Counted from the first letter of the stretch, positions 1,032 through 17,538 are shown. The stretch: DNA of 42,005 nt from an uncultured Myxococcales bacterium (GCA_964594295.1 CAZQPP010000006.1:1-42005), one strand, 5' to 3'. Numbers and translations are program-made. Notes: a model not told the origin generated them from the letters alone.

Positions 1032-1152
1032 CGGAGCGAGGGAATTCTCGCCGAATTGCGTGCGCGGGCAAGAATCTCCAAGGGAGGCGGCGCGTGTTGC
1101 GCGTAACTGCGCTGCGCAGGCTCAAGCTCTGCGCGGGAGATCCGATTCACTC

Positions 1153-3501
1153 ATGCGCGTGCCCATGATGATCCCTTCTCCCCCAGGCATCGGAACGACG
1201 CGCGCCGCGGTGATGAGCGCGGCGCTGTGGCTGTGTGCGTGCACCGCCGCGACGGACGCCACGGTCGGCGCCGGCGAAGAGGGCCCCGCGCAGGCGAGCA
1301 GCGACGAGGGGGTGGTGTTCCAGACACCCTATTGGTCCACTGACCAGGGCGTGAGGACAACGGGACCCGGGACGGGCGACGGGGGCGGTGTCGCCCCGCT
1401 CGCGGACAGCGGCGGGACGCCCGGCGCGTTCGACGCCGGTCCCCTGCCCGGCGGTCCGGACCCCGGCTGGGAGCCTCCCAGCGGAGACCGCGGGCACAGC
1501 GGAGCGGCGGACCTCGGGCGTGTCGACCAGGGCGGCGGGGCAGATCTCGGAGCTCCCGCCGGAGGCCAGGACGCGGGGCCGGTGGGATGGCCCGATCCGG
1601 GCGTTGGCTCCCCGGACCCTGGCAACGGGCCGGCACCCGACCCTGGAACCTGCGTGCCGGTGGCAGAGCGCTGCAACGGGCAAGACGACGACTGCGACGG
1701 CTTCGTCGACGAGGAGACTACCGACTGCGACGACCAGATCGCCTGCACCGCCGACAGCTGCGAGGCGTCGGGGTGCCACCACGTGCCCGACGACAGCCTC
1801 TGCGACGACAGCAACTCCTGCACCGACGACAGCTGCGACTGGCAGACCGGGTGCGCCTACCGCCTGATGGAAGGACCGCCCTGCGACGACGGCAACCCGT
1901 GCACGACCGGCGACACCTGCGACGAGACCGGGAGCTGCACGGGAGAGCCCATCGCCGACTGCTGCAGCGAGCACCTGCACTGTGACGACGGCAACGTCTG
2001 CACCACCGACCGCTGTGAGCAGGGGACCTGCCTGAGCTTCCCCGCCCCGGTCGGGGTCACCTGCGACGACGGCGACCCGTGCACCGAGCAGGACGGGTGC
2101 TTCAACGGCGCCTGCAGCGGGGTCCCCATCAGCTGCGACGACTCAAACCCGTGCACCGACGACCTCTGCTCCGGGGGCAGCTGCTCGAACACACGATCGA
2201 GCGACGGGCAGCATTGCGACGACGGGGATCCGTGCACCACCGGCGACGCCTGCAGCTCGGGGCACTGCGCTGGAGAGACAACCGACTGCGACGACGGCGA
2301 GCCCTGCACAGCCGACAGCTGCGCGGGCGGGGGCTGCATCCACGGGGAGCTCCCCGACGGCTCGAGCTGCCCGGGGGGAGTCTGCCAGGGCGGGTCCTGC
2401 CGACTCACGGATGGTGCGCGTCTCGTCGCGGCGGGCGGCGAGCACTCCTGCGCGGTGCGCCAGAGCGGCGCCGTCCTGTGTTGGGGGAGCAACGCCTCGG
2501 GCCAGCTCGGCGACGGGAGCACGGTCCTGTTCCGCCCTGCCCCCTCGGAGCCCGTGAGCGCTCTCGAGGCGCCCGTTGCCCTCGGCGCCGGCACCTCACA
2601 CACGTGCGCCGTGGCTGCCGACGGTGCGGCCCACTGCTGGGGCAGCAACGCCACCGGACAGCTCGGCGACCCCGACGCCGGCTTCGAGCGCCGGACGCCC
2701 TTCCCCGTGCTCGGCCTCTCCGACGCCGCGTCGATAGACGGCGGCCACGAGCACACCTGCGCGCGGCGCCGCAGCGGAGCCATCTGGTGTTGGGGCTCGG
2801 ACATCCACGGCCGACTCGGCAACGGCCACCACTTCACCGGCGAGGTCCACTACACCGCCGTCGAGGTCAACAACATCTGGGCGGCGACCGACGTGGCCGC
2901 CGGCGGTGATCACGGCTGCGCCGCCGTCAACACCGGGCGGGTCTGGTGCTGGGGCCGCAACATGCACGGCGAGATCGGCGACGGGACCTCTGGTGGCGGC
3001 GCCGAGCACGACTTCCCCGTCGAGGTGCACGAGCTCAGCTCGGCGACGGCGGTGGCGACGGGGCACCAGCACAGCTGCGCGGCCGAGGCCGACGGCACGG
3101 TCTGGTGCTGGGGCCGCGGCATGCGAGGTCAGATCGGCCACGGAGGCAGCGGACAGCTCATCGGCGCCACCACCCCGCACGTCGCGACGGGGGTCTTCGA
3201 CGCCATAGACGTCGCCGCCGGCCAGGAGCACACCTGCGCCCTCACGGGCGGCGGCCAGGTCTGGTGCTGGGGCGCCGGCACCGACGGGCAGATCGGAGAC
3301 GGCGGCACGACCGACCGCACCTACCCCACCCGGGTCCAGTCCCTCCCGCCGACGGCCGCCCTCAGCGTAGGCCGCTCCCACTCTTGCGCTCTCGCGCGCG
3401 GCGGCGCGGTCTACTGCTGGGGCTCGAACTCCTCGGGCCAGATCGGCGACGGCACCAGCGGCGGCCTCCGCCCCTTGCCGGTGCGAGTGCAGGGTTTCTG
3501 A
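1153..3501 (+). CDS. Predicted lipoprotein: Pro/Gly linker, Cys-rich CDDGNPCTxD repeats, C-terminal 7-bladed RCC1/BLIP-II-like beta-propeller
   Basis: ORF 1060..3501; a likelier start is ATG 1153 or a nearby in-frame ATG. Lipobox-like AALWLCAC, one ERCNGQDDDCDGFVDE motif, tandem CDDxNxCTxDxC units, seven GxxHxCA...GxVxCWGxNxxGQ(L/I)GxG repeats from ~2420. Confidence 0.88.
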   Translation: MRVPMMIPSPPGIGTTRAAVMSAALWLCACTAATDATVGAGEEGPAQASSDEGVVFQTPYWSTDQGVRTTGPGTGDGGGVAPLADSGGTPGAFDAGPLPGGPDPGWEPPSGDRGHSGAADLGRVDQGGGADLGAPAGGQDAGPVGWPDPGVGSPDPGNGPAPDPGTCVPVAERCNGQDDDCDGFVDEETTDCDDQIACTADSCEASGCHHVPDDSLCDDSNSCTDDSCDWQTGCAYRLMEGPPCDDGNPCTTGDTCDETGSCTGEPIADCCSEHLHCDDGNVCTTDRCEQGTCLSFPAPVGVTCDDGDPCTEQDGCFNGACSGVPISCDDSNPCTDDLCSGGSCSNTRSSDGQHCDDGDPCTTGDACSSGHCAGETTDCDDGEPCTADSCAGGGCIHGELPDGSSCPGGVCQGGSCRLTDGARLVAAGGEHSCAVRQSGAVLCWGSNASGQLGDGSTVLFRPAPSEPVSALEAPVALGAGTSHTCAVAADGAAHCWGSNATGQLGDPDAGFERRTPFPVLGLSDAASIDGGHEHTCARRRSGAIWCWGSDIHGRLGNGHHFTGEVHYTAVEVNNIWAATDVAAGGDHGCAAVNTGRVWCWGRNMHGEIGDGTSGGGAEHDFPVEVHELSSATAVATGHQHSCAAEADGTVWCWGRGMRGQIGHGGSGQLIGATTPHVATGVFDAIDVAAGQEHTCALTGGGQVWCWGAGTDGQIGDGGTTDRTYPTRVQSLPPTAALSVGRSHSCALARGGAVYCWGSNSSGQIGDGTSGGLRPLPVRVQGF

Positions 3502-4961: not shown

Positions 4962-7900
4962 ATGTTGTCACGGACACGGTGGGCACCTTGGGTCAACACG
5001 CTGGCCGTGGCACTCCTCGTGGGCGCCTGCACCACTGATCAGCTGGACACCGGGCCGGTCGTCCAATCCGACACCGACAAGACGTCCGACGTAGACAACG
5101 TCGTCGGTGTGGACGGCAGCGAGGAGGAGGTCACCGGCGAGTGCCCCGAGCCGCCCTGCGTCGAGTGCAAGGAGAGCGCTGACTGCGACGACGCGTTCGC
5201 GGACCTCGGCCCCTGTGAGGTCGCCCTCTGCGTGGACGACATGTGCACGCGGCGCCCGAAGATCGAGGGCGCGCCCTGCGAAGACGGCGACCCCTGCACC
5301 CTCGGGGACCACTGCACCGTCGCAGCCGGCGGGAGGCTCGACTGCCGGGCGGGCTCGGGTGGGTGCTCGGACGATGACGTGTGCAACGGCGAGGAGGCCT
5401 GCGATCCGACGGAGGGCTGCATCGAAGGAGAGCCGCTCGAGTGTGACGACTCAGATGCCTGCACCACCGACACCTGTGATCCCGTGAATGGGTGCGTCCA
5501 CGGACCGAGCGGCGTGGAAGGCTGCTGCTCGGGCGACGCGGACTGCGACGACCAGAACACCTGCACCGACGACCGCTGCAACGTGGACGGCTTCTCCTGT
5601 GTCAACGAGGCCATCGACGGCGACTGCGACGACGGGGACGCCTGCACCGCGGAGGACACCTGCGACGCGGGCATCTGCGTCGGGGCCAAGACCGTCGACT
5701 GCGACGACAGGCAGCCCTGCACGGTGGACAGCTGCGACGCCGAGACAGGCTGCATGAACCGGCCGTCCGACGGACCGTGCGACGACGGCAACGCCTGCAC
5801 GACCGAGGACTCCTGCGTGGAGGGCCGCTGCGTGGGTGGCCCGCCGCCGGACTGCGACGACCAGAACGACTGCACGGCAGATCCCTGCGACATCAGCTCC
5901 GGCTGCGTGCACGAGGCGGTCGAGGGGCCCTGCGAGGACGGAGACCGGTGCACCGAGGCGGACACCTGCGAGGGGCGGCGCTGCGTGGCGGGCAACACCG
6001 TCGACTGCGACGACCGCGATCCGTGCACGATAGACGGCTGCGACCCGGAGACCGGCTGCACCCACGCCCCCTCGGACGTTGGCTGCGAGGACGGCGACCC
6101 GTGCACCTCGGGGGACACCTGCGTCGGCGGCAAGTGCGTCGGCGGCGAGCCCACCGACTGCGACGACGGCAAGCCCTGCACCGACGACGACTGCGACCCG
6201 GGAATCGGCTGTACCCACGAGGAGAGGAGCGGCGACTGCGAGGACGGCGAGCCCTGCACCGACGGGGACCAGTGCGAGGGCGGCGAGTGCGTCGGGGGCG
6301 ATCCCACCGACTGCGACGACGACAACGTCTGCACCGACGACTCCTGCGTTGACGGCGTCGGCTGCAGCAACGCCCCGGTGGAAGGCAGCTGCGACGACGG
6401 AGACCTCTGCACGGACCGCGACTTCTGCAAGGAGGGCGTATGTACCGGCGGCCCCCCGACCGACTGCGACGACAACAACGTCTGCACCGATGACACCTGC
6501 ACCTCGGACAGCGGGTGCGCGAGCGCGCCGGTGCCCGGGCCCTGCAACGACCTCAACCCCTGCACCGACACGGACACCTGCCAGGACGGGACCTGCTCGG
6601 GCTCACCCGTACCGGGCTGCCACATCGTCTGCGAGCTCGCGGGAGACCGCGGGGACGTGATCGAGTGCCCGATCGGCCTCGCACGGGTCGGCGAGGAGGG
6701 CCCCGCCGCGACGGAGATCTCCTTCCGGATCGAGTACCCCTCCGGGACGGCGGAGCTCGAGACCCTCGTCGACGAGGAGTGTGGTGGTGGAGCCTGCATC
6801 GACAGCCGCATACCGCAGGACAGCGCGCAGCTGCGGCCCAGCGGTCACGACGTGGCGCTCTCCCCGGCGAGGGCGGTCGAGTGGTTCGGGACCGTGGAGC
6901 TCCGGGTGGCCCACTCCCTCTGGCCGGATCGGAGCATCAACGACGCCTACGTCGTAGGAGGCCAGGTGCGCGGCAGCGACGCCAGCCTGCTGCGCCTTCG
7001 CTTCGAGCTCAGGAGCAGGGCCGCCAAGAGCTACGCCCTGCTCAGGAACATCACGGCGAAGAGCGCCGGGGGCGAGACCCTGGCCACCGACTTCTCCAAG
7101 AGCCTGATCCTCACCGGGGAGGCGCCTTGCAGCGGCGGCGTCTGCTTCGACGGCAAGGCGTGCACTACCGACGAGTGCATCGACGGGCAGTGCGTCTTCA
7201 CCCCGCAGACAGGCTCCTGCGACGACGGCAACGCCTGCACGGCGAACGACACCTGCGACCAGGAAGGCAACTGCCTGCCCGGGCCCCCCGCCGGACAGGG
7301 CAAGCCCTGCACCGGGGCCGACAAGTGCGCCGAGGTGGGGACCTGCGACGGACAGGGGACCTGCGTGATCGTCCCCGGCATGGCGGTGGTGTGCGAGGAG
7401 CCGGAGCACGGCTGCCAGGCCGCCGCCTGCGACCCGCGCAGCGGCACCTGCGTGTACTCCCCGAGGCCCGGTATCGGGTGCGACGACGGCGACGCGTGCA
7501 CGGAGGACGACACCTGCGACGCTCGCGGCCTCTGCTCGGGCACTGCGGTGGACTGCTCCGACCCCTTCGGCTGCACCATCGAGAGCTGCCACCGCGACAT
7601 GGGCTGCCAGCACTTCACGGCGCACGGCCTGTGCGACGACAGGAACCCCTGCACCGAGGACAGCTGCGACCCGAAGGTGGGCTGCCGCCACGATCCCAGG
7701 TCCGGCTCCTGCGAGGACGGCAACCTCTGCACGACCCTCGACAGCTGCGTCGACGGCCAGTGCGTCGGCACCAACGACCCGCGCTGCGCCTGCAGCTCCG
7801 ACGCGGAGTGCGACATCCTCGAGGCCGAGGACGGCAACGTGTGCAACGGGATCTTCGAGTGCCGCGGCGGGGTCTGCTCCATCGACCCCGCCACCATGAT

Positions 7901-8624
7901 CATGTGTCCCCCCGACGGCTACCAGTGCAAGGAGGGCTGGACCTGCGACAAGCTCACCGGAGAGTGCTCGGGCCAGCCCAAGAGCTGCGACGACGGCCTG
8001 GCCTGCACGGCCGACAGCTGCTCGCCGACCTTCGGCTGCAAGCACGAGTACATCTCCTTGTGCCCCGTGGCGAACATCTGCAGCCTGACCGGCGGCACCG
8101 GAGAGGAGGTGGAGTGCGTCGTCAGGTTGGCGCGCGAGTCCGCCGGCCAGCCCGTCCCCAGCGGCGGAACGCTGCGACTGCACTGGGACAAGAGCCGGCT
8201 GCGCCTGAAGAACCTCTCCGACGAGTTCTGCATCGGCTCGAGCTGCATCCCCTTCGACATGGTCACGTGCAACTCCGAGGGCAAGCAGTGCACCCACGAG
8301 AAGCTGCGGCCGAGCCGTCACGACCTGCTCCTCGCTCCGCGCAACGTCGCCGACTGGAAGGACTGGGTCTCGATGCTGATGTTCCACGCCTCCGAGCCGA
8401 ACGAGCCGCTCTCCACCGCGGTGTTGGCGCCGGACGGGAGCGTGGGCGACGAGTCGGAGATCCTCGTCTTGCGCTTCGAGCTCGTCTCGGAGGCGCTCTC
8501 CTTCGACCCCGCCGAGGTGGCCGTCGGCCAGGTCTTCTTCAACCCGTCCTCGGGCCTCCCAATGAGGGTCTTCGTCCGTGAGCACCCCGAAGGCACGGTA
8601 TTCGTAGTGAGGGCCGAGCGATGA
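4962..8624 (+). CDS. Cys-rich lipoprotein with two cohesin-like modules (putative anchoring scaffoldin)
   Basis: 1220 aa; lipobox LLVGAC (Cys23); long arrays of CDDG(D/N)xCTxxDxC repeats; two homologous ~165-180-aa Cys-poor beta-rich modules at ~6621-7119 and ~8076-8621. Confidence 0.88.
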   Translation: MLSRTRWAPWVNTLAVALLVGACTTDQLDTGPVVQSDTDKTSDVDNVVGVDGSEEEVTGECPEPPCVECKESADCDDAFADLGPCEVALCVDDMCTRRPKIEGAPCEDGDPCTLGDHCTVAAGGRLDCRAGSGGCSDDDVCNGEEACDPTEGCIEGEPLECDDSDACTTDTCDPVNGCVHGPSGVEGCCSGDADCDDQNTCTDDRCNVDGFSCVNEAIDGDCDDGDACTAEDTCDAGICVGAKTVDCDDRQPCTVDSCDAETGCMNRPSDGPCDDGNACTTEDSCVEGRCVGGPPPDCDDQNDCTADPCDISSGCVHEAVEGPCEDGDRCTEADTCEGRRCVAGNTVDCDDRDPCTIDGCDPETGCTHAPSDVGCEDGDPCTSGDTCVGGKCVGGEPTDCDDGKPCTDDDCDPGIGCTHEERSGDCEDGEPCTDGDQCEGGECVGGDPTDCDDDNVCTDDSCVDGVGCSNAPVEGSCDDGDLCTDRDFCKEGVCTGGPPTDCDDNNVCTDDTCTSDSGCASAPVPGPCNDLNPCTDTDTCQDGTCSGSPVPGCHIVCELAGDRGDVIECPIGLARVGEEGPAATEISFRIEYPSGTAELETLVDEECGGGACIDSRIPQDSAQLRPSGHDVALSPARAVEWFGTVELRVAHSLWPDRSINDAYVVGGQVRGSDASLLRLRFELRSRAAKSYALLRNITAKSAGGETLATDFSKSLILTGEAPCSGGVCFDGKACTTDECIDGQCVFTPQTGSCDDGNACTANDTCDQEGNCLPGPPAGQGKPCTGADKCAEVGTCDGQGTCVIVPGMAVVCEEPEHGCQAAACDPRSGTCVYSPRPGIGCDDGDACTEDDTCDARGLCSGTAVDCSDPFGCTIESCHRDMGCQHFTAHGLCDDRNPCTEDSCDPKVGCRHDPRSGSCEDGNLCTTLDSCVDGQCVGTNDPRCACSSDAECDILEAEDGNVCNGIFECRGGVCSIDPATMIMCPPDGYQCKEGWTCDKLTGECSGQPKSCDDGLACTADSCSPTFGCKHEYISLCPVANICSLTGGTGEEVECVVRLARESAGQPVPSGGTLRLHWDKSRLRLKNLSDEFCIGSSCIPFDMVTCNSEGKQCTHEKLRPSRHDLLLAPRNVADWKDWVSMLMFHASEPNEPLSTAVLAPDGSVGDESEILVLRFELVSEALSFDPAEVAVGQVFFNPSSGLPMRVFVREHPEGTVFVVRAER
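5275..6605 (+). repeat. Tandem Cys-rich CDDG(N/D)xCTxxDxC repeat array (Dictyostelium/myxobacterial-type)
   Basis: Alternating CDDGDxCTxxDTCxxGxC and CDDxxxCTxDxCDPxxGC units in the translation. Confidence 0.85.
6621..7119 (+). other. Cohesin-like module 1
   Basis: CELAGDRGDVIECPIGLAR...ISFRIEYPSGTAEL...LRPSGHDV...LLRLRFEL resembles the cohesin pattern G-x2-G-x2-VxVPI...FxIxYD...L...LxxLxF. Confidence 0.55.
8076..8621 (+). other. Cohesin-like module 2
   Basis: CSLTGGTGEEVECVVRLAR...GTLRLHWDKSRLRL...LRPSRHDL...ILVLRFEL; paralogous to module 1. Confidence 0.55.
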
Positions 8625-11600
8625 GCGCGCGGACGATGACCACCCGCACCGCCACCGTCTTCCTCGGCGCCCTGCTCGCCTTCGCCTACGTGAGCCCGGC
8701 ACCCGCCCTGCCCATCGCCACGGCGCCCTCGGGCGACCTGAACGCGGACGGCCAGGTGACCAGCACCGACCTGCAGTGCCAGATCCTGCTCTTCGAGAGC
8801 CTGCAGATCGTGGGGGAGCTGACCCAGGACCACTGCGCCGTGGACGAGGAATGCGCCATCGGGGACCACTGCCGGCCGGCCTTCAAGGGCTACAAGGTCT
8901 GCCTCCCCGAGTGCCTGCACGACGACATCGCGCTCGGCGCCGACCAGGCGTCCCCCCCCTGCCCCGACCCGCAGGTCACGGACGCGGACTGCGTCGGCGG
9001 AGTCTCACGCCACAACGCCGACCTCAACGGCGACGGGCGCATCACCAACATCGACTTCCAGTTCCTCGTGAGCCTGCTCCTCGGCCGCCTCACGGGACCC
9101 GACAGCCCCGACTTCGACGGTGACGGCATCTTGAACTTCAGCGACCCGGACTCGGACGGCGACGGGGATCCCGACGAGACCGACTGCGGGCTCCTCGACC
9201 CAACCCGCGGCTCGGGGAGCGTCGAGATCTGCGACAACCTCGACAACGACTGCGACATCCTCGTCGACACCGAGGACCCCGACTTCTTCAACACCGCGAC
9301 GCCCGCGTGCGAGAAGCTCGACGGTGTGTGCGTCGGGTCGTTCAAGCCTCACAGGCTCTGCATCGGGGGCAACTGGGACCCCTGCGACGACGCTACCTAC
9401 GCCGCCCACGACGGGAGCTACGAGATCCGAGAGGCCAGCTGCGACGCCCTCGACAACGACTGCGACGCGGACGTGGACGCGGCCGACGGCGACGTGACCG
9501 AGGCCTGCTGCTTCGAGGCGGGTGACTGCGACGACAGCTTCCGCGACCCGCCGTCCTGCGACGACACCGCGACCTGTCAGGGCCACCGCGTGGACGCGAC
9601 CTGCGAGGGCTTCGTCTGTGGCTCGAATCCCACGGACGACGACACCGCTTGCGGCGCGAGCGTGGTCGCCAAGCCGTGTGGTATGTACAAGGACGTCGTC
9701 TGCGATGGGAGCCTCGAGCAGAGCGAGCCCGCTTGCCCCGAGAGCTGCGCCGGCGAGAACGACTGCGACGAAGAGGCCCACTGCGACGACGACGCGTGCG
9801 TGCCCGACGTGGAGGAGAACGGGACCTGCGACGAGCGCTCCGACTGCGCGGCAGGCCTCGGCTGCGTCGACGGCACCTGCATCCCGGTGAACGACGAAGG
9901 CGGCCCCTGCAGCGGCCACAACAACTGCATCGGGGGGCTCTTCTGCAACAGCGACACCGGCCTCTGCGAGCAGCAGCGAGAGAACGGCGGCGCCTGCAAG
10001 GACGACGAGACCTGCCTCAGCGGTCACTGCAGCGGCGGCATCTGCTGCGCGGCCGGAGACTGCTGCTTGAGCGCAGACGACTGCCCGCCGGAGTACGACC
10101 TCAGCTTCGAGTGCACCGACCCCGCGGCCTGCCAGGGGAAGCGCACCGACCCGGCGTGCGTCCAGTTCTCGTGCCGCCGCATCGACGCCGATGACGACAC
10201 GGGCTGCACCGCGGGCGTCCCCGCCGACACCTGCGGCCCCTACCCCGACCTCTTCTGCAACGGAGAGCCGGTCCAGGACGCGCCGGTGTGCGCCAGCTCC
10301 TGCACCACCGCAGACGACTGCGATCCGGCCGGCATATGCGAGGACGGCAGCTGCCGCGGGCGCAAGGACGCGGGCGAGACCTGCGCGGCGGACAACGAGT
10401 GCGACGACCTGCACTGCCAGAACGGTTACTGCTGCGAGGAAGGGGACTGCTGCGTCTCCGCGGAGGACTGCCCGGCGAGCTACAGTGCAGAGCCTATATG
10501 CACGGCCCGATCCGCCTGCCAGGGCATCCGCCAGGAGGCCTCCTGCGAGGCCAACCAGTGCAGCTCGACCAACACGCCCGACGACTCCGGCTGCGACGAG
10601 CAGACCGAGGCGAACGCCTGCGAGCTCTACGACCCGGTCTTCTGCAACGGCCAGCAGGAGCAGACGGCGCCCGAGTGCCCGACCGGCTGCAGCGACCACG
10701 CCGAGTGTGACGACGGCGCCTTCTGCGTTGGCGGGGCCTGCTCGGCCACGCGCCCTGACGGGATGGAGTGCGCGCAGGACGGAGACTGCGCGAGCGACCA
10801 CTGCCGGAACGGCTTCTGCTGCCAGAACGGGGTGGACTGCTGCGGCGAGCCCGACGACTGCCCGGCCGGATACCGCGCCGCCGCCTCCTGCCAGAAGCCC
10901 TCGACCTGTCAGGGCAGGCGCATGGACGCCACCTGCGAGTCCTACCAGTGCGGCGCCGTAGACGTGGACGACGACAGCGCCTGCGACGAGACCACCGTCT
11001 CCGCCACCTGCGGCGCGTTCGCGTCGGTCTTCTGCAACGGGCAGGCGGAGCAGAGCGCGCCCGCCTGCCCGACGAGCTGCCAGCTCGACCGGGACTGCGA
11101 CGAGGGAGCCCACTGCGACGGCGGAGACTGCCTGCCCGACACCAGCCAGGGCGGCATCTGCAACGAGGACTCGGACTGCGCCGAGGGGCTCGTGTGTCGA
11201 GACGGCTTCTGCGCGAAGCAGTCCGGGACAGGCGGGGGATGCGCCCTCGACACCGAGTGCACCGACGGCAACCACTGCGACGAGGCCAGCGGGCAGTGCG
11301 TGCCCGACGGCCAGGAGACGGTCGCTTGCGGTGCGGACAGCGACTGCGAGGACGGCCTCCACTGCCAGAACGGCAGGTGCGAGGCGGATCAGGGCGAGGG
11401 AGAGGGTTGCGCCTCCGACCGCGAGTGCGCCGAGGGGACGCACTGCGACGAGCCGAGCGGCACCTGCCTGGCCGACAGCGCCGAGGGAGAAGGCTGCACG
11501 ACCGACAACGACTGCGCGGAGGGCCACCACTGCAGCGCCGGAGCCTGCGTCGCGGACGGCGACCCCGGCGACGGGTGCGCGGCGGACAGGAACTGCGCGG

Positions 11601-13327
11601 AGGGCACCCACTGCAACGAGGCCACGGGCCTGTGCGAGGCGGACAAGGAGCCCGGCGAAGGCTGCCTCTTGGACAGCGACTGCCAGGACGGCTTCATCTG
11701 CACCGACGGTACGTGCAGCCAGGCCGCGACGGGCGGCGAGGGCTGCGCGACCGACAGCCAGTGCGCGGACGGCTACCACTGCGACGAGCAGAGCGGTGAG
11801 TGCGCGGCCGACGCGGGCGAAGAGGAAGGCTGCCGCGAGGATGACGACTGCGCCGAGGCGCTGACCTGCGTGCTCGGCGAGTGCAAGCCGAAGAACACCG
11901 CCGGAGACTTCTGCCTGAACGACGGCGACTGCGAGGAGGGCTTCCACTGCGACGAGGAGAGCTCGCGCTGCGAGGCCGACCAGGTCAGCGGCGGGGGCTG
12001 CCAGAGCGACAGCGACTGCACCGAAGGCCTGACCTGCCGCGAGGGCTCCTGCGCCGAGCCCGGCGGCGGCGGCACCGCCTGCACGGGGCCGGCAGACTGC
12101 GCGGAGGGCCTGCGCTGCGACACGGCCTCGGGCGAATGCGTAGCCGCGGGCGGCTCCGGCGAAGGCTGCACCAGCGACGACGACTGCGCCGGCGACCTGA
12201 CCTGCAAGGCCGGGACCTGCCAGGTGGGCAGCGGCAGCGGCGACGACTGCGGCGCGGACGGCGACTGCGCCGACGGGCGCTACTGCAAGGACGGCAAGTG
12301 CGCCCCGCTCGAGGGCAACGGCGCCGCCTGCACCGAGAGCAGCCAGTGCGCGAGCGGCCACTGTGACAACGGCCTGTGCTGCGACGGAGGCACGTGCTGC
12401 AGCACGATCGCGGACTGCGACTCCTTCGCGGCGCCGGCGACCTGCTTCGACACCGTGGCGTGTCAAGGCGTGCGCTCGGATGCTCTCTGTGAAGGGAGCA
12501 CGTGCGCGGGCGTCAGGGTCGACGACGACTCGGGCTGCACCGACGCCCTGCCCGGCAAGGACTGCGCCCCCTACGCCCGGGTCACGTGTGACGGGAGCCT
12601 GGACCAGGTCGAGCCGCAGTGCGCGACGCAGTGCGTGGACGACACCGGCTGCGATGAGATCTCCGCTTGCACCGGCGGCGCCTGCACGACTCCTGCCTGC
12701 ATCCTCGCCGGCACCGGCGGCCAGACCTCCGACTGCGTGCTCCACCTCGCCCGCGGGGCCGGCGTCGCCGCCGAGCACGACGCCGTCATCTTGAACATGA
12801 GCCTCGCCTTCGCACCGGCGCGTGCCACACCGGCAGGCATCTACACCTGCAGCCCGATCCCCTTCCCATGCCTCGACCGCGCGGACCCGGCCTTCTACTG
12901 CGAGACCTACTTCCCCGAGGTCGGGCCCGTCTGCGACCCCATCTCAGGCGAGTGCGCCAAGTGCACGCTCCGAGCCGTCGACGAGAGCGGCATCGAGCTC
13001 AGCTCGGGCCACCAGGTTCGCACCTGCGCCCAGGAGGACGGCACCTGTGACGAGGGCCGCCTCCAGATCCTGATCTTCGGGAGCTCGTCCCGGCCCATCA
13101 CCGGAGCCTTCATGGACGACGCGGGCGAGATCTCGGGTCAGAGCGCGTTCGTCACCGTGCGCTTCAACCTGCACGCGGACGGACCGGTACGGGTCGGCGT
13201 CGCCGACGACAAGGACTTCGACGCCTCCAACGCCACGGCCAGGGGCGTGCCCGTTCAGATCAAGGGCGGCGGCGACGGAGGGCCCACGACCTGGATCGAG
13301 ACCGGCGCAGCGGAGGAGCCACAATGA
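8621..13327 (+). CDS. Secreted Cys-rich protein with N-terminal dockerin-like and C-terminal cohesin-like module (putative adaptor scaffoldin)
   Basis: 1568 aa; Sec-type signal peptide; ATGA overlap with the upstream gene; GDLNADGQVTSTDL and ADLNGDGRITNIDF loops; Cys-rich stalk; terminal CILAGTGGQTSDCVLHLAR...LSSGHQV...FVTVRFNL module. Confidence 0.88.
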   Translation: MSARTMTTRTATVFLGALLAFAYVSPAPALPIATAPSGDLNADGQVTSTDLQCQILLFESLQIVGELTQDHCAVDEECAIGDHCRPAFKGYKVCLPECLHDDIALGADQASPPCPDPQVTDADCVGGVSRHNADLNGDGRITNIDFQFLVSLLLGRLTGPDSPDFDGDGILNFSDPDSDGDGDPDETDCGLLDPTRGSGSVEICDNLDNDCDILVDTEDPDFFNTATPACEKLDGVCVGSFKPHRLCIGGNWDPCDDATYAAHDGSYEIREASCDALDNDCDADVDAADGDVTEACCFEAGDCDDSFRDPPSCDDTATCQGHRVDATCEGFVCGSNPTDDDTACGASVVAKPCGMYKDVVCDGSLEQSEPACPESCAGENDCDEEAHCDDDACVPDVEENGTCDERSDCAAGLGCVDGTCIPVNDEGGPCSGHNNCIGGLFCNSDTGLCEQQRENGGACKDDETCLSGHCSGGICCAAGDCCLSADDCPPEYDLSFECTDPAACQGKRTDPACVQFSCRRIDADDDTGCTAGVPADTCGPYPDLFCNGEPVQDAPVCASSCTTADDCDPAGICEDGSCRGRKDAGETCAADNECDDLHCQNGYCCEEGDCCVSAEDCPASYSAEPICTARSACQGIRQEASCEANQCSSTNTPDDSGCDEQTEANACELYDPVFCNGQQEQTAPECPTGCSDHAECDDGAFCVGGACSATRPDGMECAQDGDCASDHCRNGFCCQNGVDCCGEPDDCPAGYRAAASCQKPSTCQGRRMDATCESYQCGAVDVDDDSACDETTVSATCGAFASVFCNGQAEQSAPACPTSCQLDRDCDEGAHCDGGDCLPDTSQGGICNEDSDCAEGLVCRDGFCAKQSGTGGGCALDTECTDGNHCDEASGQCVPDGQETVACGADSDCEDGLHCQNGRCEADQGEGEGCASDRECAEGTHCDEPSGTCLADSAEGEGCTTDNDCAEGHHCSAGACVADGDPGDGCAADRNCAEGTHCNEATGLCEADKEPGEGCLLDSDCQDGFICTDGTCSQAATGGEGCATDSQCADGYHCDEQSGECAADAGEEEGCREDDDCAEALTCVLGECKPKNTAGDFCLNDGDCEEGFHCDEESSRCEADQVSGGGCQSDSDCTEGLTCREGSCAEPGGGGTACTGPADCAEGLRCDTASGECVAAGGSGEGCTSDDDCAGDLTCKAGTCQVGSGSGDDCGADGDCADGRYCKDGKCAPLEGNGAACTESSQCASGHCDNGLCCDGGTCCSTIADCDSFAAPATCFDTVACQGVRSDALCEGSTCAGVRVDDDSGCTDALPGKDCAPYARVTCDGSLDQVEPQCATQCVDDTGCDEISACTGGACTTPACILAGTGGQTSDCVLHLARGAGVAAEHDAVILNMSLAFAPARATPAGIYTCSPIPFPCLDRADPAFYCETYFPEVGPVCDPISGECAKCTLRAVDESGIELSSGHQVRTCAQEDGTCDEGRLQILIFGSSSRPITGAFMDDAGEISGQSAFVTVRFNLHADGPVRVGVADDKDFDASNATARGVPVQIKGGGDGGPTTWIETGAAEEPQ
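8732..9088 (+). other. Dockerin type I-like module with Cys-rich insert
   Basis: Two DxNxDGxVxxxD Ca2+-loop (F-hand) motifs, each followed by a hydrophobic helix (DLQCQILLF; DFQFLVSLLLG), directly after the signal peptide. Confidence 0.72.
11150..12305 (+). repeat. About 14 tandem four-Cys GxxCxxDxxCxxGxxC-x(4/6)-C repeats
   Basis: Read from the translation, e.g. GEGCASDRECAEGTHCDEPSGTC and GEGCTTDNDCAEGHHCSAGAC. Confidence 0.85.
12698..13305 (+). other. Cohesin-like module 3 (with extra Cys-rich insert)
   Basis: Shares CxLxGxxGxxxxCxxxLAR, SGHxV and RFxL motifs with modules 1 and 2. Confidence 0.5.
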
Positions 13328-16300
13328 GCCGCCCGCGCACACACCGTTGGCTGCTCCTCGGGCTCTGCCTCGCCATCGGCGCGGCGCTGCCGGCGCAGGG
13401 GCGCACGCCCTCCTCCGCCCCAACCGGCGACGTGAACCAGGGCTCGGACGTCAACTCCGCCGACCTCCAGTGCGTCATCCTGATCTGGGGCAGCCTGACG
13501 AGCCCCACCGCCTGCGACGGCCAGAACCCCTGCGGATCGGGCTTCACCTGCCGCAAGGGCTTCGGCGACGACACCGTCTGCCTGCCGGACTGCCTGCACT
13601 CCGACGTCGCGGTGGGTACGGCCAACGCCACGTCGTGCACCGACGGGGACGCAAACACCGACGACTGCCTCGGCAGGACGGCCAGGAAGAACGCGGACAT
13701 GAACTGCGACGGCTCCGTCTCCTCGACGGACTTCGACGTGCTCGCCGCCGTGATCCTGAACCACCTCGGCTACTCCGGCAGCTACGACCACGACGGCGAC
13801 GGGCGGCTGAACTTCTGCGACGACGACACCGACGACGACGGCTTCGACGACCCCGCGGACTGCAAGGACGTGAACGAGAGCTACGACCCGGCGGTCTGCG
13901 GCGCCGCAGCCCCGTCAGCGCCGGTCGTGCGCATCGACCCGGACAACCCCAGCGTCAACGACGACCTGGAGATGAAGGTCACGACGGGAGGGGTCGACCC
14001 CGACGGCGACACGGTCGGCTACCTCGTGACCTGGAAGAAGGGAGCCCGCACCCTCGAGGCCTCTACCGAGGTCACCGGGCTCGCGCCCCACGCCACGATC
14101 GTGCCTTCGAGCATGACCGCCGAGAACGAGGTCTGGTGGGTGGAGGTGCGCGCCTCCGACGGAGCGCACACGAGCGACGCCGCCACCGACTTCGTGACCA
14201 TCGGCAACCAGCAGCCCGTCATCGCGAGCGTCACCATCACCCCCGACCCGGCGACCCGGGTCAGCAACCTGACCTGCACCGTGTCGGCCAGCGACGCCGA
14301 CAACGACGAGCTGACGACCACCAAGACCTGGTACGTCGACGGGCAGGAGACCGCGGCCGAGGGCGACGGGACCCTGGCCACCTCGTCGTTGGACCCCGGC
14401 CAGGTCGTGCTCTGCAGGGCGACCGTGTCGGACAACATCGCGCCGACCGCGACCAAGGACAGCTCGGAAGCGACCATCACGAACCTCGTCCCCTCCATCG
14501 GGACCATCACCGTCACGCCAAGCTCCCTCACGCGCACCGGCACGCCCACCTGCGCCCAGCCGACCGTCACCGACGGCGACGACGCCTCGCCCACTGTCAC
14601 GGCCTGGTGGGAGGTGCAGCCCGAAGGCGGCGACTTCGCCAAGGCCGCCGACGCCACCTTCGGCCAGGCCTGGGACCCGGTCGACTCCACCATCCCTCGC
14701 GGGTCGACGGTGCGCTGCGCGGTGAAGGCCGACGACGGCTGGGCCGGCGGCGCGGTGACCGCCTACAGCGACGAGATCACGGTGCAGAACTCCGATCCGA
14801 CCTTCCTGACCGGGATCTCCTTCTCGCCGCGCCCGGACATCTACAGGGGTGAAACCCTCGCGTGCGGTGTCTCCGCCTCCAGCCTCGACGACGAGGATGA
14901 GGACGCGCTCCGTGCGACCATCTACTGGGAGAAGCAGACCGGAGGCAGCGGCGACTTCGCCCAGGTGGGTGACGGGACGACCATCTACTTCGATCCCACC
15001 GACGAGGTGCAGATCGCGGTCAACTCCGTCGGCGCGCTCCCCACCGACGTGCTGCGCTGCAAGATGGTCATCGACGACCAGAAGGGCGGGACGGCCACCA
15101 CCTACTCCGGGACGGGCACCGTGCGCAACTACACGGCCACGACGCAGTCCGACCCGCTCATCACCCCCACCTCCGACACCCACCGCAACACGACCTTCAC
15201 GTGCGTCTCGGCGACCGCGAGCGACCCGGAAGGGGACTCCACCGAGGTGCGCTACCGCTTCTTCATCAACGGCACCGCCCAGTCGGATCCGACCGCGGCC
15301 GCGGACGACCTCGCACCGGGGACCTTCGCTCGAGGAGACAAGATCAAGTGCGGGGTGAGCGCCTGGGACGGCTACGGCCTCGGGACCGAGAGGGAGAGCG
15401 CCGAGGTCACCGTGGGCAACCTCCCGCCCGACGCGCCCACGCCGAGCATCTCGCCGGCGAGCCCGCACCGGAACAGCGACCTGACCTGCTCGTTCACCGC
15501 GGTCACGTCCCCCGACGCTGACGGCGACACCATGACCACGACCGTCAAGTGGTGGAAGGACGACGTCGAGCAGACGGGGCTCGAGGGCCAGGCGACCATC
15601 GCGACCTCGAACACGGCGGCGTGCGAGGACTGGTACTGCAAGGTGCACGTCTCCGACGGGACGGACACCGACGAGGCGGCGAGCTCCGCCGTCGAGATCC
15701 CCGGGCAGCAGTCGCTCTACTTCAACGCCTCGAGCACGGTCGTCACCGTCGCCAGGTCCACCATCGGCACCGAGCTCTACTGGATGCCGGGCGTGACCCT
15801 GGAGATGTGGGTCAACGCGGACCAGATCCTCAGCCGCACCCAGACGCTCTTCGCCAAGCTGAGCGGGACCAGCGCCGCCGAGCTCCGCATGGACGTCACA
15901 AACCAGGGTGCTGTCGTCGTCTCCTTCGACCCGGATGGTAGCGGCTCGGGCACCCTGACGAGCACCAACAACGCCATCACGGAGGACACCTGGCACCACG
16001 TGCGCTTCAGCGCGGCGGCCCACTCGGGGGCCTCGTACCTGTTCGTCGACGGGCAGAAGGTCGCCGAGGCCACGGTCCTCGGCAAGGCCACCGCCGACAG
16101 CTCGCAGCGCCGGTATCACCTCCCGACCTTGAACGACCTCCACCTCGGGCGCGGCTGCAGCGACTCCTGCGACAACGAGCTCCCCTTCGGCGGCGAGCTC
16201 GACGAGGTTCACCTGGTCGCGCGCGCGCTGAACACCACCGGCGACAGCTTCACGCCCACCGCCGAGGCCACCGCCGACAGCAGCAGCGTGTTCCTGTTCA

Positions 16301-17538
16301 GCATGAACGAAGGCGTGGCCAACGCCACCACCCCGACCGTGGTGGTGGACCGCTCCGGCTACGCACGCCACGGCACGCCGTCGACCGGGGACACGGAGTG
16401 GAGGAGCTCGAGCCGCGGCGGCGCCTGCTCGGTCGAGACCAACCGAGACCCCGCGCCGGCTACCGTGAGCGAATCTCCCTGCGGCGGGGTCGTCTACCGA
16501 GACCGCGACCTCACGTGCACGGCCAGCAGCCCGGCACGTGATCCGGAAGGCGAGAGCCTCACCTCGGTGCTGCGCTGGACCTTCGGCGGCACGCACCAGT
16601 CCGGGCGCGACGACACGACGACGGTGGCGAAGGCGGACCTGACCGCGTGCCAGGACATCGTGTGCACCGCCCGCGGCACCGATCCCGCCTCGAATACGAC
16701 CGACTCGAGCCACACCTTCCGCGCCCGGACCATCGGCACCGGCGGCAAGAGCGCCGCAAACACGACGATCACGATGAGCGTCTTCACCGGAGACGCGCTC
16801 GCGGCCTTCGCCCCCATGATCGCCATCCCGGACGCGCTGAGCTGGACCGTCTCCTTCTGGTTCAAGTTCAACACCACGCCGGCGGCCGGCAAGCCGACGG
16901 TCATCCGCATCGGCGACATCGGCGACACCTCGCCCAGCGACGCCACGGCCAGCCGCCTCGAGGTGCAGATCCTCTACAACGAGACCGACACGCGCTGCGA
17001 GGCGACCTTCAACCCGCAGTACGGGCTCGCGGGCGACACCGACTGGTACCCCGCAACGGGCGGAGACCCGGTCACCGTCACGCTGGTGGACAGCTCGAGC
17101 TGCAGCTCCACCACCTGGCACCACCTGAGCTTCATCCACCACGGCAGCAACAACTACGTCCTGCACTCCACCTGGACGCCGGGCGACCTCGCACCCACGG
17201 CACAGACCCGGCTCGCCAGCACGAACATCACCGCCAGCCTGGTGCTCCCCGACATGGTCGCTCCCAGGGTGAAGCTCGACAGGGTCGGCTCCGCGGTGCA
17301 CCTCGACGACCTGCACATCCGCTCCGGCACGGCCTACACCAACTCGGGAGGGTGCTTCCCGCTCGCCGCCGACGAGGCCGACGAGAACACCATCCTGCTC
17401 TGGGACATGGAGGAGCACGCCGTCTTCTCCGGCTACGTCCGCTACCTGGGCCCGGCGAGCTACAACTTCCCGGGCGAGCTCACCGACTCGGACGCCATCG
17501 ACACCGCGCCCACCGGCCTCGTGAACAGCTGCGATTAG
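13324..17538 (+). CDS. Secreted protein: dockerin-like module, Thr-rich Ig-like repeats, two LamG/concanavalin-like domains
   Basis: 1404 aa; signal peptide; ATGA overlap; GDVNQGSDVNSADL and ADMNCDGSVSSTDF loops; repeats PxxxxVxIxP...LTC...DxDGD...W...CxVxxxDG; LamG motifs TLEMWV, TWHHV, LFVDG, FGGELDEV (~15712-16378) and WTVSFWFK, TWHHL, LDDLHI (~16830-17480). Confidence 0.88.
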   Translation: MSRPRTHRWLLLGLCLAIGAALPAQGRTPSSAPTGDVNQGSDVNSADLQCVILIWGSLTSPTACDGQNPCGSGFTCRKGFGDDTVCLPDCLHSDVAVGTANATSCTDGDANTDDCLGRTARKNADMNCDGSVSSTDFDVLAAVILNHLGYSGSYDHDGDGRLNFCDDDTDDDGFDDPADCKDVNESYDPAVCGAAAPSAPVVRIDPDNPSVNDDLEMKVTTGGVDPDGDTVGYLVTWKKGARTLEASTEVTGLAPHATIVPSSMTAENEVWWVEVRASDGAHTSDAATDFVTIGNQQPVIASVTITPDPATRVSNLTCTVSASDADNDELTTTKTWYVDGQETAAEGDGTLATSSLDPGQVVLCRATVSDNIAPTATKDSSEATITNLVPSIGTITVTPSSLTRTGTPTCAQPTVTDGDDASPTVTAWWEVQPEGGDFAKAADATFGQAWDPVDSTIPRGSTVRCAVKADDGWAGGAVTAYSDEITVQNSDPTFLTGISFSPRPDIYRGETLACGVSASSLDDEDEDALRATIYWEKQTGGSGDFAQVGDGTTIYFDPTDEVQIAVNSVGALPTDVLRCKMVIDDQKGGTATTYSGTGTVRNYTATTQSDPLITPTSDTHRNTTFTCVSATASDPEGDSTEVRYRFFINGTAQSDPTAAADDLAPGTFARGDKIKCGVSAWDGYGLGTERESAEVTVGNLPPDAPTPSISPASPHRNSDLTCSFTAVTSPDADGDTMTTTVKWWKDDVEQTGLEGQATIATSNTAACEDWYCKVHVSDGTDTDEAASSAVEIPGQQSLYFNASSTVVTVARSTIGTELYWMPGVTLEMWVNADQILSRTQTLFAKLSGTSAAELRMDVTNQGAVVVSFDPDGSGSGTLTSTNNAITEDTWHHVRFSAAAHSGASYLFVDGQKVAEATVLGKATADSSQRRYHLPTLNDLHLGRGCSDSCDNELPFGGELDEVHLVARALNTTGDSFTPTAEATADSSSVFLFSMNEGVANATTPTVVVDRSGYARHGTPSTGDTEWRSSSRGGACSVETNRDPAPATVSESPCGGVVYRDRDLTCTASSPARDPEGESLTSVLRWTFGGTHQSGRDDTTTVAKADLTACQDIVCTARGTDPASNTTDSSHTFRARTIGTGGKSAANTTITMSVFTGDALAAFAPMIAIPDALSWTVSFWFKFNTTPAAGKPTVIRIGDIGDTSPSDATASRLEVQILYNETDTRCEATFNPQYGLAGDTDWYPATGGDPVTVTLVDSSSCSSTTWHHLSFIHHGSNNYVLHSTWTPGDLAPTAQTRLASTNITASLVLPDMVAPRVKLDRVGSAVHLDDLHIRSGTAYTNSGGCFPLAADEADENTILLWDMEEHAVFSGYVRYLGPASYNFPGELTDSDAIDTAPTGLVNSCD
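13426..13770 (+). other. Dockerin type I-like module with Cys-rich insert
   Basis: Colinear homolog of 8732-9088 (DLQCxIL, VCLPxCLHxDxAxG, RxNADxNxDG...DF); first loop partly degenerate (DVNQGSDVNSAD). Confidence 0.7.

Follow-up and report, generated by a model that had tools for sequence, protein, structure and literature searches.

Cohesins and dockerins are the plug-and-socket modules of cellulosomes and the basis of designer protein scaffolds. A 42,005-nucleotide (nt) stretch of DNA from an uncultured Myxococcales bacterium (GCA_964594295.1, CAZQPP010000006.1:1-42005; hereafter the window, meaning the whole stretch analysed) raises the question whether such modules can also build a scaffold without enzymes. 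Three large genes on its plus strand, here termed A, B and C, had been regarded in an initial annotation as one operon for the anchor, the adaptor and the payload of a surface assembly of this kind that lacks glycoside hydrolases. We read the operon, with a probability of roughly 60%, as coding for a cohesin-dockerin assembly of the non-cellulosomal kind, belonging to the cell envelope of a marine diderm. As annotated, the three genes encode large secreted proteins and are joined by ATGA stop/start overlaps, A to B at 8621-8624 and B to C at 13324-13327; GGAGGA is located 7 nt 5' of the start codon of C. The coordinates of all features are compiled in Table 1.

Cohesins are nine-stranded β-sandwiches (jelly-rolls) of about 140-190 amino acids (aa). 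The initial annotation had noticed a β-rich module present twice in A (A-1 and A-2) and a third time at the C-terminus of B, had taken it for a cohesin, and had set its folding as a cohesin sandwich as a test beforehand, all of which agrees with our results. The AlphaFold2 model of A-1, calculated with a 71-row alignment, is an all-β domain with a mean predicted local distance difference test score (pLDDT) of 95.4 and a predicted template-modelling score of 0.88. Comparison of this model with the Protein Data Bank (PDB) by Foldseek yielded 17 matches at an expectation value (E) ≤0.001, and 37 of the 39 PDB rows listed were cohesins, comprising type I, type II and non-cellulosomal representatives, with a probability of 1.00. 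The best match was 5nrm_A (E 1e-4; template-modelling (TM) scores 0.56/0.66), and the non-cellulosomal Archaeoglobus cohesin 2xdh ranked 12th (E 7.7e-4). The best PDB sequence matches of the 71-row profile were cohesin chains as well (5nrm_A and 5nrk_A, in two collinear pieces), albeit at a modest E of 0.024. The two other copies show 26% and 23% identity to A-1, and a family profile finds all three (A-1, E 3.2e-44; A-2, E 1.6e-52; B, E 6.7e-21). Judged by the model of A-1 and its structural matches, the β-rich module belongs to the cohesins, within which it forms a divergent branch. A-2, which gave a pLDDT of 35 when folded as a single sequence, and the module of B would share the cohesin fold by homology to A-1. 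The reading of the β-rich module as a carbohydrate-binding module (CBM) was rejected; the non-cohesin rows listed by Foldseek were two streptococcal adhesin domains at ranks 43 and 49.

Members of the family in related genomes do pass the Pfam Cohesin cut-off, namely G014:C411:1753-1923 and G007:C1:107783-108238, both overlapping matches of the family profile, and the family members P0009 and P0253 carry precomputed PF00963 assignments. Searching 1.84 billion cluster representatives with the profile retrieved 246 proteins at E ≤0.001, of which 119 reached E ≤1e-10 and 26 reached E ≤1e-30. Many of the 246 are lipoprotein-like, and many contain 2 to 9 copies of the module between Cys-rich repeats; P0004 with 7 modules and P0005 with 8-9 resemble scaffoldins. 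Eighty cohesin modules were arranged in a maximum-likelihood tree by a quick, short search. A-2 belongs to a clade of 26 rows which consists almost entirely of C-terminal cohesins of A-like proteins (Shimodaira-Hasegawa approximate likelihood-ratio test (SH-aLRT) support, 96). The cohesin of B is found in another clade (12 rows, SH-aLRT 98), in which C-terminal cohesins predominate and several members derive from B-like proteins, while A-1 groups with internal cohesins of A-like proteins (20 rows) with weaker support (SH-aLRT 88). Cohesin types that are specific for a position and kept across genomes would fit distinct binding specificities, without proving them. A protein from a metagenome, P0108 (2072 aa), contains a split dockerin of the type described below, a canonical Pfam cohesin (residues 603-702, 40.4 bits) and, at its C-terminus, a member of the divergent family, joining both kinds of cohesin in one chain.

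The gene A protein has the N-terminus MLSRTRWAPWVNTLAVALLVGAC, and its signal peptide ends in LVGA-C, which we take to be a lipobox with Cys23 as the lipidated residue; the description of A as a lipoprotein with two copies of the β-rich module is consistent with this. The lipobox rule applied here is obeyed by 16 of 23 A-like proteins with two cohesins, as compared to 1 of 17 split-dockerin proteins. Dicty_CTDC (107 bits) is the only Pfam family detected in A, and the spacing of the two cohesins in 12 A-like relatives, according to domain coordinates, is about 287-394 aa. Cysteine contents amount to 11.2% in A and 11.9% in B, and to 2.5% in C. The Pfam scan of A, B and C did not reveal any surface-layer homology (SLH) match.

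B and C, both of which start with ordinary signal peptides, have an N-terminal module in common (39% identity over 171 aa, E 6e-34). Pfam Dockerin_1 matches it above the cut-off of 22.9 bits in B (26.6 bits) as well as in C (25.1 bits), and the module of B scanned alone scores 41 bits (E 2.3e-10); other Pfam families in B are DUF7107 and Dickkopf_N. The module had been described as a double calcium-loop module, i.e., a dockerin of paired repeats. Its relationship to dockerins stands; the plain adjoining pair does not, because a Cys-rich insert of about 62 aa, with six invariant Cys in an alignment of 18 rows, separates the two loop-helix repeats, and B contains three loop motifs instead of two. 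Those starting at residues 39 and 134 both fit the DxNxDG motif. A usual dockerin is compact (about 60-70 aa with a short linker), a feature that the module of B does not share. Loop positions 1 and 12, which are among the Ca-coordinating positions, are invariant Asp in both repeats of all 18 sequences. When profile A5 was compared with PDB sequences, the ten best matches were all dockerin chains (best, 4fl4_A, E 3.1e-4), with calmodulins ranking lower. A word-based homologue search with the dockerin of B recovered the near-identical P0007 only, while an alignment-based search found 17 proteins with the split module, usually directly after the signal peptide; 15 of the 18 family members match Dockerin_1 at E ≤1.

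The decisive piece of evidence for a split dockerin is a compact paralogue, P0280, encoded on contig C298 of the window's own genome (G000). It consists of two loop-helix repeats about 14 aa apart, situated 3' of two cohesins in the same frame. When it is aligned to the split family by hhalign (probability 98%, E 2.5e-13), the Cys-rich stretch, about 62 aa long, appears as an insertion, and phmmer aligned both repeats to the solved dockerins 5lxv_B, 2ccl_B and 1ohz_B (E 7.6e-4 to 0.03). By these sequence comparisons, the N-terminal module of B and C is a relative of dockerins that is split by a Cys-rich insert. The Pfam Dockerin_1 scan of the whole genome did not recover B and C, its sole match being a compact dockerin at the C-terminus of a short, Pro-rich protein (G000:C259:5385-5573, plus strand, 41.3 bits). 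At least 90% of the 18 split dockerins have a Cys at two sites, one within loop 2 (DLNCDG) and one after loop 3 (LNFCD). In B both are replaced, by Gly at residue 137 (window 9029-9031) and by Ser at residue 174 (9140-9142), a paired replacement which would be compatible with the joint loss of two Cys that form one disulfide.

Cohesin and dockerin genes are linked, as supported by co-occurrence, a kept gene junction and a fused paralogue. A sample of 41 genomes was made up of G000 and 40 relatives, with few exceptions members of one class; 13 of the 41 were matched by the dockerin profile and 16 by the cohesin profile. Both modules occurred in 12 genomes, the dockerin only in one (G028, 86% complete), the cohesin only in four, and neither in 24; several of the dockerin-profile matches are half-modules, and compact Pfam dockerins are present in two of the four genomes with cohesins only. 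For nine of 20 full-length split dockerins, the start is located 78-141 nt 3' of a cohesin match in the same orientation (in G000, the junctions A-B and B-C and one on C659; G011:C219; G010:C102; G018:C117; G030:C65; G030:C26; G033:C81). The junction of an A-2-type cohesin with a dockerin is kept in G000, G011, G010, G030 and G033, that of a B-type cohesin in G000 and G018, and synteny, which the initial annotation had suggested to examine, was found in that A-like genes with two cohesins are followed by B-like genes in G011, G010 and G030. The fusion, L003 (G000:C298, 4859-10312, minus strand), is a frame of 1818 aa, open at the contig end, in which an A-like part with two cohesins is followed by the compact dockerin, a B-like Cys-rich stalk (45.7% identical to residues 132-578 of B) and a C-terminal cohesin-like tail. 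A predicted complex of the A-2 cohesin (65-row alignment) and the B dockerin (18-row alignment), run without controls, gave ipSAE (interaction prediction score from aligned errors) values of 0.24 and 0.25 compared with a mark of 0.32, which speaks neither in favour of binding nor against it. Another of the related genomes, G014 (7.2 Mb), shows 83 cohesin family-profile matches and 24 Pfam Dockerin_1 matches at E ≤0.01, and several of its proteins carry many cohesins; it may possess a very large cohesin-dockerin system.

The cargo appears to be non-enzymatic. That no glycoside hydrolase would be recognizable had been noted at the outset, and the Pfam scan of A, B and C indeed revealed no glycoside hydrolase, catalytic domain or CBM. 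Pfam likewise detected neither a catalytic domain nor a CBM in the 17 other split-dockerin proteins, whose domains comprise MopE motifs, TSP_3, LTD, SPRY, Dicty_CTDC, NHL, TIG, DUF1554 and Pfam cohesin. For C, an immunoglobulin (Ig)-like and LamG architecture behind the shared calcium-loop module had been proposed. The shared module was confirmed; the LamG-like core is borderline, with Laminin_G_2 scoring 22.7 bits, just below the cut-off of 22.9, and Laminin_G_3 among the Atlas leads. The Ig-like part rests on a motif recurring about every 100 aa and on Atlas leads for PKD, Big_7 and He_PIG at 0.89-0.91; a BLAST comparison of C against itself did not detect repeats. A second region of C (about 1130-1404) contains, by eye, a similar TWHH motif. 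In the syntenic loci examined, the homology of C is confined to the dockerin, and its body has no homologue.

The host is a diderm, as had been deemed probable, since genes for Omp85 (five matches), LolA and secretin are present in its genome. The source records of homologues are metagenome-assembled genomes that go by the names Myxococcota, Myxococcales, Deltaproteobacteria or Pseudomonadota, and the bacterium is accordingly a probable Myxococcota-like one. The locus is represented by DNA in marine or seawater metagenome runs of two studies; no RNA runs containing it were found among the sequencing runs listed. Among 201 genomes sampled evenly across the phylum, for which fewer candidates per genome were scored, the cohesin family occurred in four, all belonging to the class of the window.

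According to the arrangement that we propose, A would be exported, lipidated at Cys23, and would hold, on disulfide-rich stalks, two cohesins that differ in their position-specific type. B and C would be exported by means of their ordinary signal peptides, and their mature N-termini would be formed by the dockerin, with two Ca-binding loop-helix repeats around the disulfide-rich insert. The dockerin of B would bind to the C-terminal cohesin of A (A-2), and the dockerin of C to the third cohesin type at the end of the long Cys-rich stalk of B; these two pairings are favoured by the kept junction and by the fusion. The inner cohesin of A would be free for other dockerin proteins of the genome, e.g., those encoded on C659 and C1012. 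With a cargo of binding modules (Ig-like and LamG-like in C) instead of enzymes, the complex would display adhesin or lectin domains. Binding in this chain order, its presumable dependence on Ca2+, exposure at the cell surface and a ligand for the terminal modules are predictions of the arrangement.

A number of results weigh against the proposed assembly. The suggested Pfam check, which B and C passed for Dockerin_1, gave no match to Cohesin (PF00963) for any of the three modules of the window, also when they were scanned alone, and none anywhere in the window's own genome. A profile built from the three modules (A1) did not match any PDB sequence or Pfam family either, so the identity of the cohesins was beyond the reach of sequence methods alone. 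The TM-scores of A-1 to solved cohesins are moderate (0.4-0.66) at high root-mean-square deviation, and A-1 is the only module with a confident model, A-2 and the cohesin of B relying on 23-26% identity. The dockerin reading is based on sequence. The strict loop motif occurs only once in C (residue 125), the first loop being degenerate with a departure at position 5; some of the PDB alignments of profile A5 pair loop 2 with the third loop and not with loop 1, and Pfam Dockerin_1 does not match the compact paralogue P0280 at E ≤0.1. The 41 genomes are kin, so that the counts are not independent and the co-occurrence overstates independence. For 11 of the 20 split dockerins a cohesin directly upstream is missing (ten lack it, and one is located at a contig start), and the dockerin tree is not divided in accordance with the type of the upstream cohesin. 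Finally, B and C would have to cross the outer membrane, for which no route is encoded in the vicinity.

If the modules are true binding cohesins and dockerins, they might still be wired differently: B and C could each occupy one of the cohesins of A, or B-type proteins could join head to tail to form open-ended fibres or networks. A possesses two cohesins of different types and the operon two different dockerins. Several proteins possess a dockerin as well as a cohesin (P0007, P0103, P0108, P0149, P0098 and one encoded on G011:C219), and the C298 protein combines cohesins and a dockerin in one chain. The window's own genome contains at least ten cohesin modules, and a genome-wide dockerin search, advised in the initial annotation, brought up further dockerin proteins on C659, C1012 and C259 besides that on C298. 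The lack of a pairing signal in the dockerin tree also leaves room for other wiring. The junction between a cohesin end and a dockerin start, kept in five genomes for the A-2 type and in two for the B type, fits pairing between neighbours instead, and we regard a different wiring as rather unlikely.

Considerably less probable, in our view, is that the proteins do not assemble with each other at all and that each acts on its own as a secreted, Cys-rich protein of the matrix or adhesin kind, the β-sandwiches being structural or ligand-binding and the calcium loops serving only for fold stability, in the manner of EF-hand or thrombospondin type 3 motifs. The sub-threshold Pfam Cohesin scores of the modules, weak matches of the dockerin module also to EF-hand, FG-GAP and TSP_3 models, and its mixed Atlas leads (MopE, EF-hand, Dockerin and TSP3, all below 0.9) could be understood in this way. 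The same holds for the name "extracellular matrix protein" in the source record of one homologue and for a neighbourhood that encodes large Cys-rich secreted proteins throughout. However, the Foldseek rows are almost all cohesins, the best PDB sequence matches of the calcium module are dockerins, ahead of calmodulins, and co-occurrence, the kept junction and the fusion would be difficult to account for if cohesins and dockerins were functionally unrelated. That a complex is formed but stays within the envelope, at the inner membrane or the inner face of the outer membrane, with a role in envelope or periplasmic architecture, is very improbable in our view. In its favour, diderm lipoproteins face the periplasm by default, B and C have Sec-type signal peptides only, and no secretion system is encoded beside the operon. 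The evidence against it is indirect: the proteins are very large and disulfide-rich with lectin, Ig, NHL, TIG and SPRY-type modules typical of extracellular proteins, and secretins are present in the genome.

The non-cellulosomal cohesin-dockerin assembly of the envelope, which we prefer, might be part of something larger. It is possible, albeit with the odds against it, that the operon is one node of an enzyme-free cohesin-dockerin "adhesome" of one class of marine Myxococcota-like diderms, in which lipoprotein scaffoldins with position-specific cohesins and disulfide-braced N-terminal dockerins would form long surface fibres, branched or joined head to tail. Their interchangeable lectin, Ig, NHL, TIG and SPRY modules would catch prey or particles, and up to dozens of cohesins per genome would take part.

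The locus has much in common with clostridial cellulosomes, such as those of Acetivibrio cellulolyticus (ScaA/ScaB/ScaC) and Clostridium thermocellum (CipA and anchoring scaffoldins): scaffold proteins bearing modules of cohesin fold, dockerin-tagged partners, an adaptor that has both a dockerin and a cohesin, and adjacent scaffoldin genes. Among cellulosome cohesins, the best structural matches of A-1 are 5nrm_A, 3ghp_A, 2b59_A and 4fl4. Unlike those systems, it lacks any glycoside hydrolase or CBM according to Pfam, its anchor is a lipobox in a diderm instead of an SLH domain or sortase signal at a monoderm wall, its linkers are Cys-rich Dicty_CTDC repeats, its dockerins are N-terminal and split by the insert, and its cohesins remain below the Pfam threshold. 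Of the features by which a cellulosome is recognized, scaffoldins with several cohesins were found (A with two; P0004 and P0005), while enzymes or CBMs and anchoring via SLH or sortase were not. The locus would work like a cellulosome scaffold and is not a cellulosome.

Cohesins and dockerins outside cellulosomes were reportedly surveyed by Peer et al. in 2009. As in the non-cellulosomal pair of Archaeoglobus fulgidus (PDB 2xdh), the modules of the window occur outside cellulose degraders. Surveyed archaeal cases, as far as covered by the passages available of PMC9012536, are without large multi-cohesin scaffoldins, in contrast to the relatives described here with 7 to 9 modules per protein and 83 module matches in one genome. 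Cohesin or dockerin proteins of anaerobic methanotrophic (ANME) archaea and their sulfate-reducing partners have been proposed as adhesins in those parts of PMC9012536 and PMC10553843 that we consulted. They resemble the present system in being non-cellulolytic, in their proposed adhesion or cell-cell role, in that some hosts are diderm bacteria, and in the combination of one dockerin with several cohesins per protein and variable partner domains. They were found by standard domain annotation, whereas the modules of the window are more divergent; the split dockerin, the lipoprotein anchor and the Cys-rich stalks set the latter apart from the descriptions given in the same passages. The cohesin-like modules of Clostridium perfringens (PDB 2jh2, 2vo8 and 2w1n; Foldseek ranks 4, 8 and 31) are a further example of the cohesin fold outside cellulosomes; they belong to glycoside hydrolases or toxin complexes of a monoderm pathogen, while ours belong to enzyme-free Cys-rich lipoproteins. 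An inserted domain that parts the two helices of a dockerin also has a precedent, in giant proteins of Omnitrophota, where, according to the excerpts seen of bioRxiv 10.1101/2023.11.21.568195, dockerin helices flank a CBM35-like barrel. In contrast to this β-barrel insert, which is repeated many times per protein, the insert of B and C is a stretch of about 62 aa with six Cys in a single N-terminal module.

Non-cellulolytic cohesin-dockerin systems are thus already in print. Four features appear to be new: the divergence of this cohesin branch, a dockerin at the N-terminus that is interrupted by a disulfide-rich insert, anchoring through a lipoprotein in a diderm, and the scale reached in relatives such as G014 (83 cohesin and 24 Dockerin_1 matches). 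Searching the literature for cohesin and dockerin in combination with myxobacteria, Myxococcota or Deltaproteobacteria, judged by title or abstract, did not reveal such a system. The 246 cluster representatives found at E ≤0.001 belong to a branch of cohesins that escapes standard annotation, and the combination of a cargo without enzymes with a lipoprotein anchor in a diderm would be novel. If the modules do bind, the cohesin-dockerin principle would extend to adhesion, in bacteria noted for their predatory and social habits, and would account for part of the giant Cys-rich "hypothetical proteins" in marine Myxococcota-like genomes. Binding would also provide new disulfide-stabilized pairs for protein engineering, which may be orthogonal to existing ones.

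Table 1. Features of the A-B-C operon and the adjacent downstream reading frame (positions in the window; ORF, open reading frame)
Feature	Position	Strand	Description and basis
Gene A	4962-8624	+	ORF, 1220 aa; Cys-rich lipoprotein with two cohesin-fold modules; candidate anchoring scaffoldin
Signal peptide of A with presumed lipobox LVGA-C (Cys23)	4962-5030	+	Sequence
Cohesin module A-1, internal type	6618-7130	+	Residues 553-723; AlphaFold2 model, Foldseek, tree
Cys-rich linker between A-1 and A-2, ~310 aa	7131-8060	+	Dicty_CTDC repeats
Cohesin module A-2, C-terminal type	8061-8621	+	Residues 1034-1220; family profile, tree
Gene B	8621-13327	+	ORF, 1568 aa; N-terminal split dockerin, Cys-rich stalk of ~1180 aa, C-terminal cohesin; candidate adaptor
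Split dockerin of B	8711-9145	+	Residues 31-175; loop-helix 1 from 39, Cys-rich insert ~63-128, loop-helix 2 from 134, third Ca loop at 164
Cohesin module of B, with extra Cys-rich insertion	12683-13324	+	Residues 1355-1568; alignment, family profile, tree
Gene C	13324-17538	+	ORF, 1404 aa; N-terminal split dockerin, low-Cys body; candidate payload
Split dockerin of C	13408-13821	+	Residues 29-166; 39% identical to the module of B; first loop degenerate
Tandem modules of C, probably about six of ~100 aa, Ig/PKD-like (lead)	13906-15723	+	Motif recurring about every 100 aa; Atlas leads
LamG-like (concanavalin-A-like lectin) core of C	15901-16149	+	Laminin_G_2, just below cut-off
Downstream ORF, 531 aa	17632-19227	+	Pro/Ala-rich, hydrophobic segments; starts 94 nt after C

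The G+C content of the window is 68-72%, and scanning the locus for promoters and terminators yielded nothing above chance. The ORF downstream of C does not contain any Pfam family. The scan found no terminator-like site between it and gene C, and it may be co-transcribed with the operon, its membership in the unit being uncertain.

A giant ORF at 23323-42003 on the minus strand, which exceeds 6226 aa and continues beyond the end of the window, shows Pfam matches to Big_13, Big_6, TSP_3, two FGE-sulfatase domains and Dicty_CTDC repeats, and none to cohesin or dockerin. An 890-aa protein encoded at 20894-23566 (minus strand) contains MopE metal-binding motifs, as found beside split dockerins in relatives, and its gene is adjoined by an N6/N4 DNA methylase gene (19987-20877, minus strand). 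Just upstream of the operon, positions 1060-3501 (plus strand) code for a secreted Cys-rich protein of 813 aa with an RCC1-like β-propeller and Dicty_CTDC repeats.

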